Part shown: positions 10,141 through 36,632 of the stretch, piece after piece
Layout of the letters: every line of letters starts with the position of its first letter
How positions within the stretch are numbered: the first letter of the stretch is position 1
From: a virus
Lineage: Duplodnaviria > Caudoviricetes
IMG/VR virus record: IMGVR_UViG_3300047678_000069
Location: 1,942-65,941 of that record
Length of the DNA: 64,000 nt
Reading direction: 5' to 3' (one strand)
The notes under the pieces: generated by a model
Told to the model about the DNA's origin: nothing
The model's input: only the letters and a program-made list of their open reading frames with translations
Databases searched by the model: none
Position numbers and translations under genes: made by a program

Positions 10141-11481
10141 TTATACTCCTTTTTGGGTTGTTGAAGGTTTGGTGCGGTGATCGAGCCAGATGGAACAAGC
10201 AAGTCGCCAATCTTCACTTTCGATTTCTTTGAGAAGCTTGGCAGCTTCAACAGCTCCGAATTCTTTGTACGTGTCCCAGACACGAATCATCGGGAATGCT
10301 ACATGCTGGAAGAAAGGCAGTGGTTTTGGGATAACACTCTTGAAGGCACAATCCGACGGGTTGCTGACGAAGCGTTGGACTTGGCTGTCAAAGTCTGGTC
10401 TTTGAAAGTCTTCGAACAATTTGATTTTGGTGAATCCGTTGTGGTCAGGGTAAGCAAACTGAATTTTATCAGCTTTCAGCCATTTGTTGGGATGGAAGCC
10501 GGAATTGGTTTCCGTGTAGACGTGGGCATTGTTGGTGAAGTGATGGTATAGGCCAGCATGGACATTCAAGCCACATGCCATGTATTCCTGAAGGAAAGAA
10601 AAGTGAACGTAGTTCGCTCCCAGCATTCCCCAGACAATGTCGTTTGAACGGTTTGTTACAGTCATGTCAAGGGTTTTCGTTTTGTACTTGAAACCTGCCT
10701 GATAGAGTTTGATCCTGTTGGTACAGGCAACCACTCCCGCAAGATCGCCGTCGCTTCTGGCAAGCAACGATTTTTCATGTTCACGTTCTATGTTGCTCAC
10801 GAGCTCGTTGTGGGACCAGTTGTGGTTGACATGCTCAGTCTTGATCGAGAACATGACTGACAGGTTGCAGCAAACATCTTTTGATGGTGGGACTTCAATA
10901 GTCTTGAATACATGTCTATTTCCAAAACATGTTCCACAATAGGAGTGACCCCAATCTCTGCCACAGTCTGGACAATCTTTCTTATCTGTGATGAAGGAAG
11001 GATTGATCCGCAGAAGATCGTCTTCAACGTTCCACATCTGCAGAACTGCTCGCCTTGAACCCGGAGTGGCTTTCAGGTGTGAGATGATCAGATCAAGCTG
11101 GTCGATTGGGTGACTGTAGAAGTTGCCTTCACGATCTTTGTCCATGGCGGCCCGCCAGCGATAACCGTAGGCACCGTTTAGGGTTTTGCCATTGTCAGAG
11201 AATTGGCCGAACGTTTTGACGAACTTGAGCAGTGGGTCAAGATCGTTTCGACCAGCGAGCATCCACATGGCTTCAAACAAGTGGAAGAACGGGTTGGCAT
11301 CCCTTTCTTTGTTCAGCAGCAAACGCTGACTGGGATTTGTATAGGTCACGATCACTGGTTCTTCGATTTGCAGAACCGGACCGTTGCGGGATGGTGTGCT
11401 GATGGTGGGAATGGTTTCGTCAGCAATGCCGCGAACAATGGATTCGAAGGCGTCATTCACGTTCTGAAATTTGAAATGCAT
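10141..11481 (-). CDS. Thymidylate synthase homolog, probable dUMP hydroxymethylase
   Basis: SRRAVLQMW, KDVCCN (catalytic Cys), NRSNDIVWG-GAN (Asn implies dUMP specificity), NNAHVY; two insertions. Confidence 0.85.
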   Translation of the reverse strand: MHFKFQNVNDAFESIVRGIADETIPTISTPSRNGPVLQIEEPVIVTYTNPSQRLLLNKERDANPFFHLFEAMWMLAGRNDLDPLLKFVKTFGQFSDNGKTLNGAYGYRWRAAMDKDREGNFYSHPIDQLDLIISHLKATPGSRRAVLQMWNVEDDLLRINPSFITDKKDCPDCGRDWGHSYCGTCFGNRHVFKTIEVPPSKDVCCNLSVMFSIKTEHVNHNWSHNELVSNIEREHEKSLLARSDGDLAGVVACTNRIKLYQAGFKYKTKTLDMTVTNRSNDIVWGMLGANYVHFSFLQEYMACGLNVHAGLYHHFTNNAHVYTETNSGFHPNKWLKADKIQFAYPDHNGFTKIKLFEDFQRPDFDSQVQRFVSNPSDCAFKSVIPKPLPFFQHVAFPMIRVWDTYKEFGAVEAAKLLKEIESEDWRLACSIWLDHRTKPSTTQKGV

Positions 11482-12971: not shown

Positions 12972-13134
12972 GGTTGGGCTTTCTTAGTTGTGTTTTCGGT
13001 TGGAACAAGAGCTTTGGCTGGCTCGCTGTGGCGTTTGGTTTAGGTTGGCTCTAGGTTGGGTCGGGTTGGCGATTATCGGCGATTGTGGGGCCTTCTAGGG
13101 GCCTTCAGCGTGGTATTTTGGGCAAGGTTTGGGC

Positions 13135-14079
13135 TTACTTGGTTGGCTTGCGTTTGCGGGTTGCGTGGCGTGTGCCGAAATCTGATTTTGGTTCTGGGAC
13201 TGCATATAGTTGTTTCGGTCGTCCCTCACCAAACAATGTTCGTTCATACTTGTCGAATTCGCACAGGCAATTCTGAAAGTCCATTGCTTCGAGCCGAGTC
13301 ACGAATTGTTTTGAAGTGTGGTCTTCCATGGTTTGCATGAATTCGCCAAATTCTTCTTGGAATCTGCCAGCGGTGATTGAGTGGCCGATATCGCGACTAA
13401 AGAACCTGTTCAGTCCACGAAGCGAACCGGGGCCAGCGGGTGCCCACGTTTTTCGATCAAGCCATAGGCCATGTTCAGCGTGGCGTAGATCAGCGACAAC
13501 TTGACCCGACATGAACGAAGCGAATCCAAAGTTCCTCTTGATCATTTTCCACGTGTGTTGCATGGAATCTGTGTCGGGTTTGAGACGGAAGGGCTTTAAG
13601 TATTTCTTGATCACGAATTCGAGTTTGTCGCCGGTTGCTCCAGCAGTGCTTACGATATATGCACCGTTGAAGATTGTGTTCCCTTGGTCGCGGTGGTCTT
13701 GCAGGATCGTCTGAATTTTCTCCCAGTTGATCTCTGCTGGGGAAAAGATCAGCCTTGTGATCTTATCAAGGGCTTCGGGGTTGTTGAAGATGCGAGCAGT
13801 TGCTGCAGCGACAGGGATGTTTCTGTGGCCACGGTGTGGATCATACCAGTTGTTGATCAGCCATTGTGAAACCTTGTCGTCCATGCGACGAACGTTGCAG
13901 AATCTGTAGTTGTTGAGGATTGGATCTTCGGACCAAGGGAATGCACGACCAGCAACTTTCTTTTGACGAATCTGTTCGCGGGTTTTGATCCAGTGGGCAG
14001 CACGCTGATGAACGTGCATCTTGCGGATAATCTTGAGAAAGTCTTCGTCGCTTTTCGACAGCTTGACAGAACTGGCCAT
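13135..14079 (-). CDS. aGPT-Pplase1 / 5-hmdU DNA kinase helical-domain protein
   Basis: WSEDPILNNYRFCNVRRMDD and MDFQNCLCEFDKYER motifs; GGAGA RBS before ATG 14079; the frame stays open to 14427. Confidence 0.82.
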   Translation of the reverse strand: MASSVKLSKSDEDFLKIIRKMHVHQRAAHWIKTREQIRQKKVAGRAFPWSEDPILNNYRFCNVRRMDDKVSQWLINNWYDPHRGHRNIPVAAATARIFNNPEALDKITRLIFSPAEINWEKIQTILQDHRDQGNTIFNGAYIVSTAGATGDKLEFVIKKYLKPFRLKPDTDSMQHTWKMIKRNFGFASFMSGQVVADLRHAEHGLWLDRKTWAPAGPGSLRGLNRFFSRDIGHSITAGRFQEEFGEFMQTMEDHTSKQFVTRLEAMDFQNCLCEFDKYERTLFGEGRPKQLYAVPEPKSDFGTRHATRKRKPTK

Positions 14080-26298: not shown

Positions 26299-26327
26299 TT
26301 GCATTATGGTCGTTGGCTATTAATAAT
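26299..26327 (+). promoter_or_regulatory. Sigma70-like promoter TTGCAT-N17-AATAAT
   Basis: Near-consensus hexamers upstream of the ParB-like gene. Confidence 0.5.
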
Positions 26328-26390
26328 ACGTGTCAGCTTTGTTCGCTGTGGGCAAAGCAAAACAAGTTTTTAACCGGAGTGAGTTTAGTC

Positions 26391-27983
26391 ATGCCCAAGA
26401 TTACCAAAGAAGTTTCAGGAACGAAAGAAGTCAAGCCAGCAGCAAAGAAAGCTGCAAAGAAGGCTTCTGTTCCCGCCGAAACGAAGAAGGCCGCTGTTGT
26501 TGAAGCCCCTGCCAAGTCTGCTGGGAAGAAGGCTTCGAAGAAGAGCAAGGGTTCAGGGGAGATTGTTTATCCTGAACTTCGGGCTGAAGTGTACGGACCA
26601 GACAATCCGATCACTGTGGACTTGATGAAAGCGTGGTTAGGCTGGAAGGAATTGCCAGCGGATCATGAGGGCGAGTTTCTGCTGAAGGACGAAAACGGCA
26701 CAAAGGTCATTTGCTTGAACAATGCAAAGAATCGACCGTATTCAGCTTCCCTCAGCAGTTTGTATGCTCAGGAGATTCTGCGGGGACACTGGAAACTGAA
26801 CGGCGAAACCATGATCTTCGGTAATTATGGTCAAGCCATCGCAGTTCAGCACCGTGGCATCGGGTTGATTCTGGCATGGCAGAAGTGGGCCAATGACAAA
26901 GCTGCATATCCCTATTGGAAGTCGGCACCAACAATTCAGTCCTTTGTTGCGTTCGGCATTTCGGAGGATGATGAAACTGTCAACACGATTGACACTGGCA
27001 AGCCGAGAACTTTCAGCGACGCAGTGTACCGTTCGTCGTTGTTTGAGAACCTGTCTGGTTCAGCGAAGAAGAATGCCTGCAGGATTCTTGACTTTGCCGT
27101 CAGGTGCGTTTGGAACAGAACGGGTCGTGGGGTTGTTTCCTATGCACCACGAAGAACCCACAGCGAGGCATTTGAATTCGTGAATGCTCACGAGACACTG
27201 TTGAAGTGTGTTAGGCACATCATGGAAGAAAATGACGAGAACCGTGTTGGACGATTTATTCCACCGGGGACCGCTGCGGGTTTGATGTACATGATGGCTT
27301 GCAGCACAACCGATCGAACGGAATACGCTGCAGCAGAAAGTCCGACTGAGAACTATCTCAACTTTGAGAACTACGACAAAGCTGAAGCGTTCTGGGTTGG
27401 CCTTGCAAGTGGATCGAAGTTGTTCGCTCCGCTGAAAGCTGCAATTTCCAAGATGATTGAAGACTCGTTCGGTGGAAGCCCGATCGAACGTATCTCGTTG
27501 ATTGTGTTGGCGTGGACCAGCTTCCTGAACCATGGAAAGGTTCTTGAGAAAGATCTCAAGCTGGAATATCACACGGACGAAGAAACGGGTGCCACTATGC
27601 TGATGGAATGTCCTTCGGTTGGCGGGATTGACCTTGGCAACCCTGCAGAACATGAAGACGCTCAGGAAGCAACCCCGGAGGAAATGGAATCTACGAAGAA
27701 CAAGATCAAACAGGAAAAGGCTTCCAAGGGCAAGGTGGCGAAAGGTTCAAAGCAAAAGCCAGACATGAAGAACGTAGTCTACCTGACACCGGCAGATCTC
27801 AAGGTTGGTGACAAGGTTTGGGTTGGTACGTCAAGCAGTGACGAGAACAAGTGGATGGGGATCTACCGTAGTCATTACAAACTTGCGGCTGGCCCCATTG
27901 CCAAGATCGAAGCATGTGAAGGATATGCTGGGGCTGGCAAGTTGTTTGATGCATCGTTTGAATCTTTGTACGTGATTGAATAG
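26391..27983 (+). CDS. ParB/Srx-like protein with a basic N-terminal arm
   Basis: NRPYS...YAQEILRGHWKLNGETMIF...AVQHRG resembles the ParB-like DGQHRL family; also TIDTGKPRT. Confidence 0.7.
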   Translation: MPKITKEVSGTKEVKPAAKKAAKKASVPAETKKAAVVEAPAKSAGKKASKKSKGSGEIVYPELRAEVYGPDNPITVDLMKAWLGWKELPADHEGEFLLKDENGTKVICLNNAKNRPYSASLSSLYAQEILRGHWKLNGETMIFGNYGQAIAVQHRGIGLILAWQKWANDKAAYPYWKSAPTIQSFVAFGISEDDETVNTIDTGKPRTFSDAVYRSSLFENLSGSAKKNACRILDFAVRCVWNRTGRGVVSYAPRRTHSEAFEFVNAHETLLKCVRHIMEENDENRVGRFIPPGTAAGLMYMMACSTTDRTEYAAAESPTENYLNFENYDKAEAFWVGLASGSKLFAPLKAAISKMIEDSFGGSPIERISLIVLAWTSFLNHGKVLEKDLKLEYHTDEETGATMLMECPSVGGIDLGNPAEHEDAQEATPEEMESTKNKIKQEKASKGKVAKGSKQKPDMKNVVYLTPADLKVGDKVWVGTSSSDENKWMGIYRSHYKLAAGPIAKIEACEGYAGAGKLFDASFESLYVIE

Positions 27984-28271
27984 GTCTGACCTTTTCACCA
28001 GTTTGTAAACTCTGGTTCCCCTGTCGGTTGTTGTTGCTTGTTGGACAGCGATCGGCAGGGGTTTTTTGTTTTTTGTTGGCAGGGTTGGCAGGGGGGTTGG
28101 TTTTGCTTGTGGGGGTTGGTTGTTTGTGGGCAGGGGAAACAATGGGTTGGCGATTGTGGGGGCTTGTGGGGCTTGTGTGGAGCTTGTGGGCAGTAAAAAC
28201 GCTGGTTTTATTGGGCTTTTGCTTGTCGGCAAAAAACTTTTGGAAAAATGGTCAAATGGTTGTTGTGGGAC

Positions 28272-28302
28272 TTTACTTCGACGACGATTTCGACGACTAT
28301 TC
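28272..28302 (+). promoter_or_regulatory. Putative class B promoter (TTTACT-N17-GAYYAT)
   Basis: Aligns to 11598-11628; heads the plus-strand operon. Confidence 0.55.
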
Positions 28303-28511
28303 TTTCTGCAGGACGCACATTGTTGCGAACTGTAAACGATCTTTGAAAACACAGACAGGGTAAGGCTGATCGGGAAACTGGTCACTACGCTGTAGAATCA
28401 AGAACGGGTAAAACCCGTGAATCCGGCTCCTAACCAGAGAACCATCACACAGATGATGTGGAAGCCGATCGACAGGAAAGCTGATTTGCTACCAGTGGAC
28501 CTGAGACGATG

Positions 28512-28564
28512 AAGCGTAGCATGGTGTGTACCATGCCTGATGATTCGAAAACGATGAAACGCTT
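28512..28564 (+). ncRNA. Type III hammerhead ribozyme
   Basis: AAGC-GUA^ / stem I GCAUGGU-GUGU-ACCAUGC / CUGAUGA / stem II U-UCG-AAAA-CGA-U / GAAA-CGCUU; stem III AAGCGU:ACGCUU is perfectly paired. Confidence 0.88.
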
Positions 28565-28573
28565 TTAGAGGAC

Positions 28574-28855
28574 ATGACAATGACTATTGAAACCGAAGTT
28601 TACTTGATGAGCCAGTTCCGTGTAGAACCGAACATGGTTCAAGTTTGTGTTGAAGAAGGGTACTACTATACTCAACGTGGCTTTGTGATTCAAGGGTTGT
28701 CTGAAGGGGTTCACTGCTATGAATTCCAGCGGGTGTTCCAGACCGAACAGTTGGCTCTTGACAAGGTTGATCAACTCGAACGACTGGTTAATGCGACCAA
28801 GGTTGATGGACTGAAAGTTACCGAGGACTGGAATTACATCGGGTCGTCAACATAG
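28574..28855 (+). CDS. Hypothetical early protein
   Basis: GAGGA RBS directly after the ribozyme. Confidence 0.7.
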   Translation: MTMTIETEVYLMSQFRVEPNMVQVCVEEGYYYTQRGFVIQGLSEGVHCYEFQRVFQTEQLALDKVDQLERLVNATKVDGLKVTEDWNYIGSST

Positions 28856-28871
28856 TGCTGACCGTGTTCAA

Positions 28872-28905
28872 GGGGGGTGACCATCGTGGTCGCTCCCTTC
28901 TTCTT
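28872..28905 (+). terminator. Terminator-like hairpin with a CAUCGUG cap
   Basis: GGGGGTGACCA-TCG-TGGTCGCTCCC followed by a pyrimidine tract. Confidence 0.55.
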
Positions 28906-28927
28906 CAATAGAAGTGAGGATGTTCCA

Positions 28928-29344
28928 ATGTTGAGTTTAGAATTCGTACTGGCTGGTCGAGCAGTGTTCACCGTCAACAATGACAAGGGCGACCACTACA
29001 CTTTCAAGGTGGTCAAGAAGGAAACGGCTTCAATGGGGCCGATCTGGTTTGCAATGCTGCTGACTGGTCCTGACAATACAAATGACTACACCTACATGGG
29101 GTGCATTGATGCTCAGCTTGGTTTCAGACTTACCGGCAAGTCAAAGTTCAAGATGGACAGTGTTCCGGTCAAGGTACTGGTCTGGACCCTTCGACATGTT
29201 TTCATGATGCTGGAACTTCCGGCTGGTTACAAGATCCACCATGAAGGAAAGTGTGGTCGCTGTGGTCGAGCTTTGACTGTACCTAGTTCTGTGGAAAGTG
29301 GGATTGGTCCTGAGTGTGCCAAAATCATGATGGGAGTATGCTGA
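28928..29344 (+). CDS. DUF6011-like Zn-ribbon protein
   Basis: CGRCGRALTVPSSVESGIGPECA. Confidence 0.8.
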   Translation: MLSLEFVLAGRAVFTVNNDKGDHYTFKVVKKETASMGPIWFAMLLTGPDNTNDYTYMGCIDAQLGFRLTGKSKFKMDSVPVKVLVWTLRHVFMMLELPAGYKIHHEGKCGRCGRALTVPSSVESGIGPECAKIMMGVC

Positions 29345-29676
29345 TGAAGACTAAAACCGCCGTTCAATGCTGTTCATGTCACAGGGCAACAGCCGAAATG
29401 GAAATTGGGTCAAACCAAGTATGCTGGAATTGCTGGAAAGCCTTGAAGCAATACAGCATATGCTCAATCTGCCGAAAGGTGTTGAGCAAAACGCTAGCAG
29501 ACCTTGCATTCAAACGTCATACTGTTTCCTGTTGTAGTCGAAAAGCCTGCAAGATTGAAGCAGATGTTGCGGTTGGTCTGCTGTGCTGTAACAAAGCAAA
29601 GAAGATCAATTGTGTTTGTGTTCGGGCTTACAAGTGTCCTGTTCATGGTGAGTTCCATGTTGGGTCGCACGATTAG
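29344..29676 (+). CDS. Cys-rich hypothetical protein
   Basis: Multiple CxxC motifs; coupled to the upstream stop. Confidence 0.6.
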   Translation: MKTKTAVQCCSCHRATAEMEIGSNQVCWNCWKALKQYSICSICRKVLSKTLADLAFKRHTVSCCSRKACKIEADVAVGLLCCNKAKKINCVCVRAYKCPVHGEFHVGSHD

Positions 29677-29733
29677 TTGTTGGGTTATAGTTGTGTGAGT
29701 TTGTTCTTTTCCTTACTTGAAAGTGAGTTTACG

Positions 29734-30918
29734 ATGGCTGCGGTTATTGCTGATATTGCTGCTGAGATTGTTACGTTCCTTCAGCAAAATGAAACTGAAT
29801 GGTTCACTGAAGAACAAGTATATCAACAATTGCGTCACTTGGTTGGCGATCGAAAAGGTGACTACCATGTGACCTATCCTTTGAGAGCCTTGGTTGGGGC
29901 TGGTGTGCTGAAGGGGACTGTTCGAAATGGCAAGGTGGTCAAGTGTTCCTTCAAATCTGCCACAGACAGTTCAGGGGTTGAAACGGTTCCCAAAGCTGAC
30001 ATGATGAAGCTTGTTTCAACTGTTCGAAGCCAGTTCGAAAAGCAAGTGACCGACCTGACCGAAAAGGTTGGAACCCTGACCGCCGAAGTTGCCAAACGCC
30101 AGTCAGCAACACGGGTTGCTCGGATCGACGTTTACCGTGGCAAGACCCTTGAACGAAAGATTGAAGGGATCTTTCATGCAACGTTTGAAGAGATTCTGGA
30201 TCTGGGAAATGCCCGTGAACCGATCTTTGCATACGGTCCCGGCGGATCTGGCAAGTCGACCATTGGTGAACAGCTTGCCGAAGCTTTGGGGTTATCGTTC
30301 CACATGATTTCCTGCTCTTCAGGGATGACTGAGGGTCAGGTGTTGGGTCGGTTGCTTCCAGTGGGGACCAACGGCAAGTTTGAATTCGTTGGTACAGAAT
30401 TCCTCAACGCCTTTGAAAACGGTGGGGTGTTTCTGGCTGATGAGATTGACGCTGCTGACCCTAACACCTTGCTGATCTGGAATTCAGCTTTGGCGAATGG
30501 CAGGATCAGTCTGCCTAATCGGCCAAAGAAACCGATGGCAGTGATGCATGAAGATTTCGTGTTCATTGCTGCAGCGAACACCCTTGGCGGTGGGGCTGAC
30601 CGGATGTATTCTGGACGCAACAAATTGGACGGGGCGTTCATGGACCGTTTTTGCTGCAGCAAGGTTATGATTGGTTATGATCCGAACCTTGAAGAACAAG
30701 TCTGTCCTGATGTAGAACTCAGAACAAGGCTTCTGGCTTACAGAGCCAACCTTGAAGCCAACCGGCTTGAGCGAATCATCAGCACTAGGTTCATGGCGAA
30801 AGCCTACAAAGCCAAACAGCGTGGGTGGTCAGACGAGAAGATTGATGAAACCCTGTTTCGGGGATGGCGTGAAAACGAAATCAATCTGGTCAAGCAAGGT
30901 GTTCGAAAGTCCTTCTGA
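29734..30918 (+). CDS. MoxR/CobS-like AAA+ ATPase
   Basis: GPGGSGKS, FLADEIDAA, IAAANT, LDGAFMDRF. Confidence 0.9.
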   Translation: MAAVIADIAAEIVTFLQQNETEWFTEEQVYQQLRHLVGDRKGDYHVTYPLRALVGAGVLKGTVRNGKVVKCSFKSATDSSGVETVPKADMMKLVSTVRSQFEKQVTDLTEKVGTLTAEVAKRQSATRVARIDVYRGKTLERKIEGIFHATFEEILDLGNAREPIFAYGPGGSGKSTIGEQLAEALGLSFHMISCSSGMTEGQVLGRLLPVGTNGKFEFVGTEFLNAFENGGVFLADEIDAADPNTLLIWNSALANGRISLPNRPKKPMAVMHEDFVFIAAANTLGGGADRMYSGRNKLDGAFMDRFCCSKVMIGYDPNLEEQVCPDVELRTRLLAYRANLEANRLERIISTRFMAKAYKAKQRGWSDEKIDETLFRGWRENEINLVKQGVRKSF

Positions 30919-35781: not shown

Positions 35782-35872
35782 TTGTTGGTTGTTACTTGTT
35801 GGTTGTTGGTTGTTGGTTGTTGGTTGTTGGTTGTTGGTTGTTGGTTGTTGGTTGTTGGTTGTTGGTTGTTGG
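35782..35872. repeat. (TTGTTGG)x13 tandem heptamer repeat, one unit variant
   Basis: Read directly; in the convergent intergenic region. Confidence 0.95.
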
Positions 35873-36188
35873 TTGCTGCGGGATTCTTGCGTGGGCTTGC
35901 AGGGTGGTTGTGTGGCTCTTGGTTGGTTGTTGGGCAGGGTTTTATTGGGCTTTTGGCTAGGGGGCGTTTGTGGGGCAAAATTGGGGCTTTTGCGATGGCT
36001 CTGGCAGGGCTTTGCAGGGGCTTTAAGCGTGGGGGGCTCTAGGGTCGGTTGGGTTTCGAAAAGCGACGCGTCTGTGGGCTTGTGGGGGGCCTTAAAACGC
36101 AAAATCGCAAGGGGTTTAGGTGGGCAGAGTTTGGGTAGGGTTTACTGTACAGTCGTATAGTATCAGATTTTGGTGGGTGTACCAACGA

Positions 36189-36219
36189 AAAACCATCCAG
36201 ATTTTTTGTCTGGATGGTT
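36189..36219 (-). terminator. Terminator ending the late module
   Basis: AACCATCCAGA/TCTGGATGGTT stem with an adjacent A-run. Confidence 0.75.
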
Positions 36220-36266: not shown

Positions 36267-36632
36267 TCAGACTGGTTCTTCTACTGGCGGAACTTCTTCG
36301 TCCGGAACATCGCGGACAGCCACGACTTCATGACCAAGACCAAACGCTGGAAGTGGATCTTCCAAGTCGCCGACTTGAAACGTGTACTGTTCGGAGACAA
36401 CAGTCTTATCTTCTCCATTCACGGCCTTGCCGGTTGTGTGGACGCGGAAGATGACCGACTGACTCGCTTTCACTTCGACAATGATGTTCGTGATCTCTGG
36501 TGATACTTCAGACTCCAAAGCTGGAGTTCCGTCAATCACCACTTCCACGACCTGTTTCGTGATGTCACCTGATGGCGATGGTGACCATTTCAATTTCACA
36601 TCGGCTACCAACATTCGAACAAACTCCTTCAA
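36267..36632 (-). CDS. Small beta-rich (Ig/Fn3-like) protein
   Basis: VKLKWSPSPSGDI Fn3-like start; upstream extended -10 TGCTATAAT. Confidence 0.6.
   Translation of the reverse strand: MKEFVRMLVADVKLKWSPSPSGDITKQVVEVVIDGTPALESEVSPEITNIIVEVKASQSVIFRVHTTGKAVNGEDKTVVSEQYTFQVGDLEDPLPAFGLGHEVVAVRDVPDEEVPPVEEPV

Follow-up and report, generated by a model that had tools for sequence, protein, structure and literature searches.

Phage record and gene neighbourhood

The window, by which we mean the whole 64,000-nucleotide stretch of DNA analysed here, comprises bases 1942-65941 of a 65,941-base IMG/VR virus record with an estimated completeness of 92%. The record belongs to a tailed dsDNA phage and has PHROG matches to, among others, terminase, portal, tape measure, DNA polymerase, primase/helicase and thymidylate synthase. 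Its portal protein is less than 30% identical to any GenBank phage record, and the phage is therefore without a cultured relative. At the nucleotide level, the region 27500-30500 showed no DNA match to GenBank phages, and a search of the same phages with the 68-nt hammerhead element described below returned only fragments with E ≥ 2. Among sequencing runs, the stretch was found in just two DNA runs, of a moss metagenome, from which it may originate, and in none of RNA.

Minus-strand genes occupy the phage DNA as far as 26260 and resume at 36267, enclosing a plus-strand block. The features of the locus within this block are the following:

26313-27983, plus strand: upstream gene (556 aa) in the plus-strand block, with a terminator-like hairpin beyond its end
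28018-28061, plus strand: strong intrinsic-terminator-like hairpin of 18 pairs with a T run, ending the upstream gene 26313-27983
28062-28510, plus strand: probable promoter/leader region of about 450 nt without a convincing gene, between terminator and predicted ribozyme
28511-28517, plus strand: stem III 5' strand of the predicted ribozyme, G28511 (wobble) followed by AAGCGT, which would remain on the upstream cleavage product
28518, plus strand: A17, the cleavage-site nucleotide of the GTA triplet 28516-28518, with the predicted cut at 28518/28519
28519-28536, plus strand: stem I hairpin (7 bp, loop GTGT), predicted to lead the downstream RNA at its very 5' end once cleavage has occurred
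28537-28543, plus strand: core strand CTGATGA (C3-A9), from the sequence and the Rfam alignment
28544-28555, plus strand: stem II hairpin TTCG/AAAA/CGAT, three Watson-Crick pairs plus T/T at 10.1/11.1
28556-28558, plus strand: core GAA (G12, A13, A14), from the sequence and the Rfam alignment; the GAAA occupies 28556-28559
28559-28565, plus strand: stem III 3' strand, A15.1 and CGCTT plus T28565 (wobble), pairing with the 5' strand
28568-28572, plus strand: Shine-Dalgarno-like GAGGA, 3 nt past the ribozyme end at 28564
28580-28855, plus strand: downstream ORF, an orphan of 91 aa from ATG 28580 (93 aa from ATG 28574 in the list of open reading frames)

Relatives of the 556-aa upstream protein were absent from the viral contigs searched. 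The same was found for the 91-aa downstream ORF, which also had no family match. The first-pass annotation had called this ORF the first early gene; what the analysis supports is that it is the first gene past the strong terminator. It is followed by genes for a DUF6011 protein, an AAA_5 ATPase (29677-30918), a DUF7192 protein and a UvrD-like helicase. None of the ORFs in the leader of about 450 nt matched Pfam or PHROG, and they overlap with the terminator or with low-complexity repeats. A promoter search of 28062-28515 produced a single weak sigma-70-like site, TCGGGA-17-TAGAAT at 28370; the lack of a convincing promoter is a point against the ribozyme reading. A tRNA scan of the window found none.

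The first 200 nt of the leader (28062-28270) form a G/T-rich non-coding tract, and similar tracts occur at 35840-36140 and 12990-13140, all with degenerate repeats of the TTGTGGG or GGTTGG type. Their GC skew reaches +0.74, and the plus strand is the G-rich one regardless of the direction of the flanking genes. For the word TTGTGGG, the window has 25 occurrences where 10.5 are expected, six of them inside 28107-28269, and an 18-base stretch is common to 28204-28221 and 35938-35955. Possible functions of these tracts are as regulator sites, as an origin or as spacers prone to G-quadruplex formation. A perfect hairpin at 36186-36215 (CCATCCAGA / TCTGGATGG), flanked by T runs on both sides, lies at the boundary between the plus-strand block and the minus-strand structural genes and looks like a bidirectional terminator.

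Anatomy and scoring of the predicted ribozyme

The first-pass annotation had described 28512-28564 as a type III hammerhead with a complete core, a GTA triplet, a cut after 28518, a 7-bp stem I and a fully paired stem III, and each of these elements was located in the sequence. The positions that define a type III core are all present at 28516-28518, 28537-28543 and 28556-28559, namely CUGANGA, GAA, the A15.1-U16.1 pair and a nucleotide other than G at position 17. Stem I is formed by GCATGGT (28519-28525) with ACCATGC (28530-28536). Stem III comprises six base pairs between AAGCGT (28512-28517) and ACGCTT (28559-28564), which a G28511/T28565 wobble could extend. Stems I and II are closed by loops and stem III is open, and the minimum-energy fold of 28505-28572 gives precisely this hammerhead secondary structure. 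The energy of this fold is unexceptional (z = -1.86, with 14 of 200 shuffles equal or better), which counts against the ribozyme reading. The one departure from the canonical arrangement lies in stem II, in which the closing pair G10.1-C11.1 is replaced by T/T at 28544/28555. Beyond the ribozyme, the GAGGA was indeed found 3 nt downstream, at 28568-28572. The gene start proposed earlier, ATG 28574, did not hold up equally well: it is spaced only 1 nt from the GAGGA, and the in-frame ATG 28580 is the likelier start because its spacing is 7 nt. The gap from the ribozyme to ATG 28580 is 15 nt.

The pattern CTGATGA-N12-GAAAC occurs once in the window, compared to 0.02 occurrences expected (2 of 100 shuffles contained one). 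Comparison with Rfam hammerhead models, the check that the first-pass annotation had proposed, gave a divided answer. An end-to-end alignment to RF00008 (Hammerhead_3) scored 33.4 bits, with E = 9.9e-6 on 251 nt and E = 6.2e-7 on the whole 65.9-kb record, which favours the assignment; the RF00008 gathering cut-off is 48.5 bits, so that a scan of the window at gathering returned no match, and this counts against it. The same family search of 28400-28650 gave, the hammerhead aside, chance-level matches only. Among these, the one at 28449-28505 to the archaeal C/D-box sR11 (23.7 bits vs 39; E = 0.014 on 251 nt) was treated as chance; it probably stems from GATGA and CTGA words.

A more specific score was obtained with a covariance model (R2) built from 106 other aligned members of the family described in the next section, with the window sequence left out. 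The window element scored 67.4 bits with this leave-one-out model (E = 1.4e-16) and matched it over the full length 1-55, whereas the runner-up in the window reached 12.3 bits. The same model detected one hammerhead copy in the entire phage record. Taken with the covariation of the family, this score strongly supports the earlier proposal of a type III hammerhead adjoining the ribosome-binding site of the next gene, and we are highly confident that 28512-28564 is a genuine, selected type III hammerhead.

A phage hammerhead family and its stem II closing pair

The exact 24-mer composed of CTGATGA, stem II and GAAAC recurs in 15 other viral contigs, in all of which the flanks build stems I and III of differing, compensating sequence. 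Position 17 is A or T in these contigs, an ATG lies within about 20-25 nt downstream, and loop I, which was unconstrained in this comparison, reads GTGT in 11 loci, GAAT in three and GTGC in one. A looser pattern, GTGT-N7-CTGATGA-N12-GAAAC with pairing left unconstrained, was found in at least 120 viral stretches. Among the 142 pattern matches listed, 134 showed at least five of seven stem I pairs and at least four of six stem III pairs. The family alignment was made from the matches listed with a slightly stricter pairing filter and with duplicates removed, and contains 107 distinct sequences including that of the window.

Across these 107 listed sequences, 92.4% of the cells were paired, a percentage inflated by the pairing filter on rows (8 of the 142 listed matches were dropped at the first filter), compared to 63.3% in column shuffles and 31-46% with partners slid by 1-3 columns. 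The covariation score was 0.806 vs 0.225 for shuffled alignments, none of 500 of which reached the observed value, and at most 0.131 when the 3' partners were slid by 1-3 columns. Changes on both sides were found at 13 of the 17 pairs in the listed sequences. By helix, again among the 107 distinct matches listed, stem I was 99.9% paired, with six of its seven pairs changing on both sides and up to six pair types per position; stem II was 88.3% paired, with three of four pairs covarying; and stem III was 86.4% paired, with four of six pairs changing on both sides. Position 17 was C, A or T and never G, and loop II was AAAA or GAAA in 93 of the 107. Together with the loop I sequences of the 24-mer contigs, this is at most indirect evidence of a tertiary contact between loops I and II, which would permit fast cleavage at physiological Mg. 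The architecture is unusually fixed, with a 7-bp stem I carrying a GTGT loop and a four-position stem II carrying a purine-AAA loop; the search pattern itself prescribed the spacings, the core and the letters of loop I, whose invariance is therefore uninformative.

Three scans with family models produced 148 matches in 100 loci, 60 in 43 loci and 57 in 44 loci, and family members scored about 43-77 bits with the family covariance models. Many of the contigs carry three to six hammerhead copies. Twelve such multi-copy loci (L006, L009, L021, L025, L035, L063, L130, L041, L072, L007, L005 and L013) returned no Rfam match at gathering, and the RF00008 cut-off, and with it routine annotation, therefore misses these copies. 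The window copy and these twelve copy-rich loci thus differ from the hammerheads of PMC3088659 and RF00008 in falling below the gathering cut-off. In this way a very abundant phage hammerhead architecture lies under the Rfam threshold and the family is overlooked by routine annotation. The T/T subclass was also observed in prokaryote genome bins, in which 24 of 32 pattern matches (L157-L188) were strong model matches. Seventeen of the 24 confirmed loci are labelled as Patescibacteria group, mostly Saccharibacteria, and another case is a Sphingobacterium griseoflavum contig.

The U-U at 10.1/11.1 had been called unusual in the first-pass annotation. The mismatch is there, but the description as unusual does not stand, since the listed matches (107 distinct) have G-C in 56 cases, T/T in 44, A/A in six and G/T in one. 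In the whole viral collection, combinations of A, C or G at 10.1 with A or G at 11.1 were limited to A/A (12 distinct sequences) and one C/A, G10.1 with a partner other than C was represented by a single G/T sequence type, and a search for this architecture with a nucleotide other than G at 10.1 and C at 11.1 found nothing. Watson-Crick pairs other than G-C were essentially missing from 10.1/11.1 in these scans. The pair U10.1/U11.1 was already reported as a natural hammerhead variant in 2011, in the consulted part of PMC3088659, which cites Ruffner 1990 for a higher activity of U/U at this site compared to other mismatches. Because T/T is thus a documented natural variant in that source and is present in 44 of the 107 distinct matches listed, we do not consider it disqualifying for the window element. 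G10.1 contributes to a known metal site of the hammerhead, and since stem II of the window copy has only three Watson-Crick pairs and is without G10.1, its cleavage rate may be slow, which weighs against the ribozyme reading.

The identity of position 17 varies with the 10.1/11.1 class. In 115 distinct sequences, position 17 beside G-C was C in 46, A in nine and T in two; beside T/T it was A in 31, T in nine and C in four; and beside A/A it was T in ten and C in two. The T/T class in genome bins had A at position 17 in 13 of 23 cases. The association had p = 5e-9 with fine clustering (51 clusters) and p = 0.052 (16 clusters) or 0.91 (4 clusters) with coarse single-linkage clustering; since it fades under coarse clustering, shared descent may account for it. 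A speculative interpretation, which we hold to be rather doubtful, is that position 17 tracks 10.1/11.1 in a Watson-Crick-like manner (G-C with C17, U/U with A17 as in the window, A/A with U17), reflecting a contact so far unrecognised, or another state, that involves the cleavage-site nucleotide and the foot of stem II; the homo-mismatches would then offer another natural way of satisfying the geometry around G10.1.

Genomic setting and possible role

Members of the family have a marked position relative to genes. Among the matches listed (106 distinct contexts), 100 had a downstream ATG-ORF within 100 nt on the same strand, at a median gap of 22 nt (IQR 19-24), and in 88 of these listed contexts the gap to the start codon was 10-40 nt, a range that includes the window copy with its 15 nt to ATG 28580. 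A same-strand ORF ended upstream in 92 of the 106 listed contexts, at a median gap of 32.5 nt and within 15-70 nt in 81 of the 106. In 113 distinct contexts, the 40 nt directly upstream formed a hairpin with an energy of -10 kcal/mol or lower in 64% of cases, compared to 10% of 618 control segments (Mann-Whitney p = 7e-31). A recurrent module was observed in loci L005-L134, in which a gene is followed by a GC-rich hairpin, the hammerhead, about 22 nt and the next gene. An idea that the family hammerheads follow capsid genes was rejected: ten upstream proteins comprised four matching a gamma-glutamyl-cyclotransferase PHROG, one ATPase and five with no match.

The window copy does not share the upstream part of this arrangement, the short gap of 15-70 nt after a same-strand gene together with an abutting strong hairpin, and this counts against the ribozyme reading. 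Its previous gene ends at 27983, 528 nt away and behind its own terminator, and the 40 nt abutting the ribozyme upstream fold to only -8.7 kcal/mol. Given this distance and the weak abutting fold, the window copy is placed in an operon leader and not in a short intergenic gap. The neighbouring genes offer a limited comparison. Relatives of the DUF6011 protein are mostly 30-51% identical to it over the greater part of its length, with the weakest match covering 25 residues only, and none of their 13 loci (three viral and ten metagenomic) carries a hammerhead, which is a further point against the ribozyme reading. As these relatives are few, distant and all without a hammerhead, positional conservation cannot be shown from them.

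The part of Perreault et al. 2011 (PMC3088659) that we consulted reports that hammerheads of phages and prophages flank genes and that prophage examples cleave in vitro and in E. coli, and the occurrence of hammerheads in phage intergenic regions, as stated in the first-pass annotation, agrees with these published cases. The same part of the source proposes that hammerheads process long phage transcripts, and describes a hammerhead of a halovirus that precedes the first ORF of an early transcript by 13 nt; the mapped 5' end of this transcript is at most 3 nt from the cleavage site. The window element has in common with the phage hammerheads described there the catalytic core, the type III topology and the location on the coding strand between or before phage genes. 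It differs in being the sole copy in the phage and in lying within a long leader that follows a terminator, and not in a short interval separating two genes. The literature covered contained no description of the particular subfamily, which may be present in the supplementary alignments of PMC3088659.

We propose that the ribozyme acts in the untranslated region leading into the plus-strand gene block, which starts at ATG 28580. The transcribed RNA would fold into the three-helix junction and, by the internal transesterification that is standard for hammerheads, cleave at A28518/G28519. This would free the upstream RNA with a 2',3'-cyclic phosphate end and just the 7-8 nt of the stem III 5' strand, and the downstream message would keep nearly all of the ribozyme, with its 5'-OH located on the first nucleotide of stem I. 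This 7-bp hairpin would be followed by the stem II hairpin and then by about 20 unpaired bases with the GAGGA and the start codon. The predicted net effect is a short, standard and nuclease-resistant 5' end that is independent of the leader of about 450 nt. Provided that the ribozyme is active, both the stem I-capped 5'-OH end and the separation of the upstream RNA are expected from what is established about hammerhead chemistry. In bacteria, RNA decay that depends on the 5' end is slowed by hairpins at the extreme 5' terminus and by 5' ends other than a monophosphate. By inference, the predicted ribozyme would cleave itself in vivo and thereby influence stability and translation. The proposed function appears plausible and in line with published ideas, and 5'-end processing or insulation of the downstream message seems to us a reasonably probable role.

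Other explanations of the element were considered against the same evidence. The ribozyme could be active and mainly serve the upstream RNA, forming 3' ends, either of a non-coding leader or a small RNA (28062-28518) or of read-through from the terminator (28018-28061), with the downstream effect being secondary. The excess of abutting 5' hairpins over control segments suggests that the 3' terminus of the upstream cleavage product is important in the family, and about 450 nt without a credible gene precede the ribozyme in the window. However, the window copy itself is without a strong upstream hairpin, with type III topology the body of the ribozyme stays with the downstream product, the matches listed are tightly spaced relative to the downstream start codon, and Rfam models point to no other structured RNA above chance level in 28400-28650, and we regard a mainly upstream function as unlikely. 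Cleavage could also be switched, occurring only when the stem III 5' strand and the cleavage site are not paired with 28385-28391, depending on transcription speed, a bound factor or promoter choice. A perfect 7-bp helix between CTACGCT (28385-28391) and AGCGTAG (28513-28519) can indeed compete with stem III in the 221-nt fold of 28380-28600, where it appears in the minimum-energy structure and partly in the centroid; this competition also tells against the ribozyme reading as such. Regulated cleavage is raised as a possibility for phage hammerheads in the consulted part of PMC3088659. On the other hand, by simple arithmetic a 7-mer complementary to some part of a 53-nt element is expected by chance about once per 450 nt or so, the 221-nt fold is not significant (z = -1.76), and family members have simple hairpins only and no such common element, making a regulatory switch quite improbable.

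The reading as an inactive relic or a chance look-alike without self-cleavage draws on the score under the Rfam gathering threshold, on a mismatch at the most conserved helix pair, on the single copy in the phage and on the absence of hammerheads from the nearest available relatives, the 13 DUF6011 loci. Against it stand the E value with the leave-one-out model, the intact state of every core position with all three helices perfect, and the recurrence of the same mismatch in listed matches with covarying stems, which is unexpected for decaying copies. We therefore consider a relic or look-alike very improbable, and processing of the downstream 5' end remains our preferred interpretation.

If this interpretation is correct, the window arrangement would be a natural counterpart of RiboJ and of the ribozyme insulators used in synthetic biology. 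In general stem and loop sizes the window element presumably resembles the sTRSV ribozyme. RiboJ, a ribozyme derived from sTRSV and inserted between promoter and RBS, in E. coli increased transcript about 2-fold and protein 2-10-fold according to the consulted part of PMC6206723. Like sTRSV(+)/RiboJ, as described in that part of the source, the window element is of type III and lies between promoter or leader and RBS, and its cleavage is predicted to remove the leader and leave a hairpin-capped, standard 5' end. In contrast, RiboJ is synthetic and has an extra 23-nt hairpin before the RBS, whereas the natural window element comes without such a hairpin and carries T/T instead of G-C at 10.1/11.1.

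The window element is a member of a very large, already known kind of phage ribozyme, and its identification is solid but fairly ordinary. Of wider relevance are the habits of the family, including the distance of about 22 nt to the start codon, the hairpin just upstream and the replacement of G-C by U/U or A/A, which bear on the long-open question of the purpose of phage hammerheads. For this phage, an active ribozyme would provide the head of a replication-type gene block (AAA ATPase, UvrD-like helicase) with a concrete RNA-processing site.

Only one hammerhead-bearing locus, L074, shares a gene with the window, a homologue of the AAA_5 ATPase. In this locus a hammerhead of the T/T class (10508-10562, minus strand) lies 29 nt before a 402-aa gene whose product is 37% identical to the AAA_5 ATPase of the window (29677-30918).
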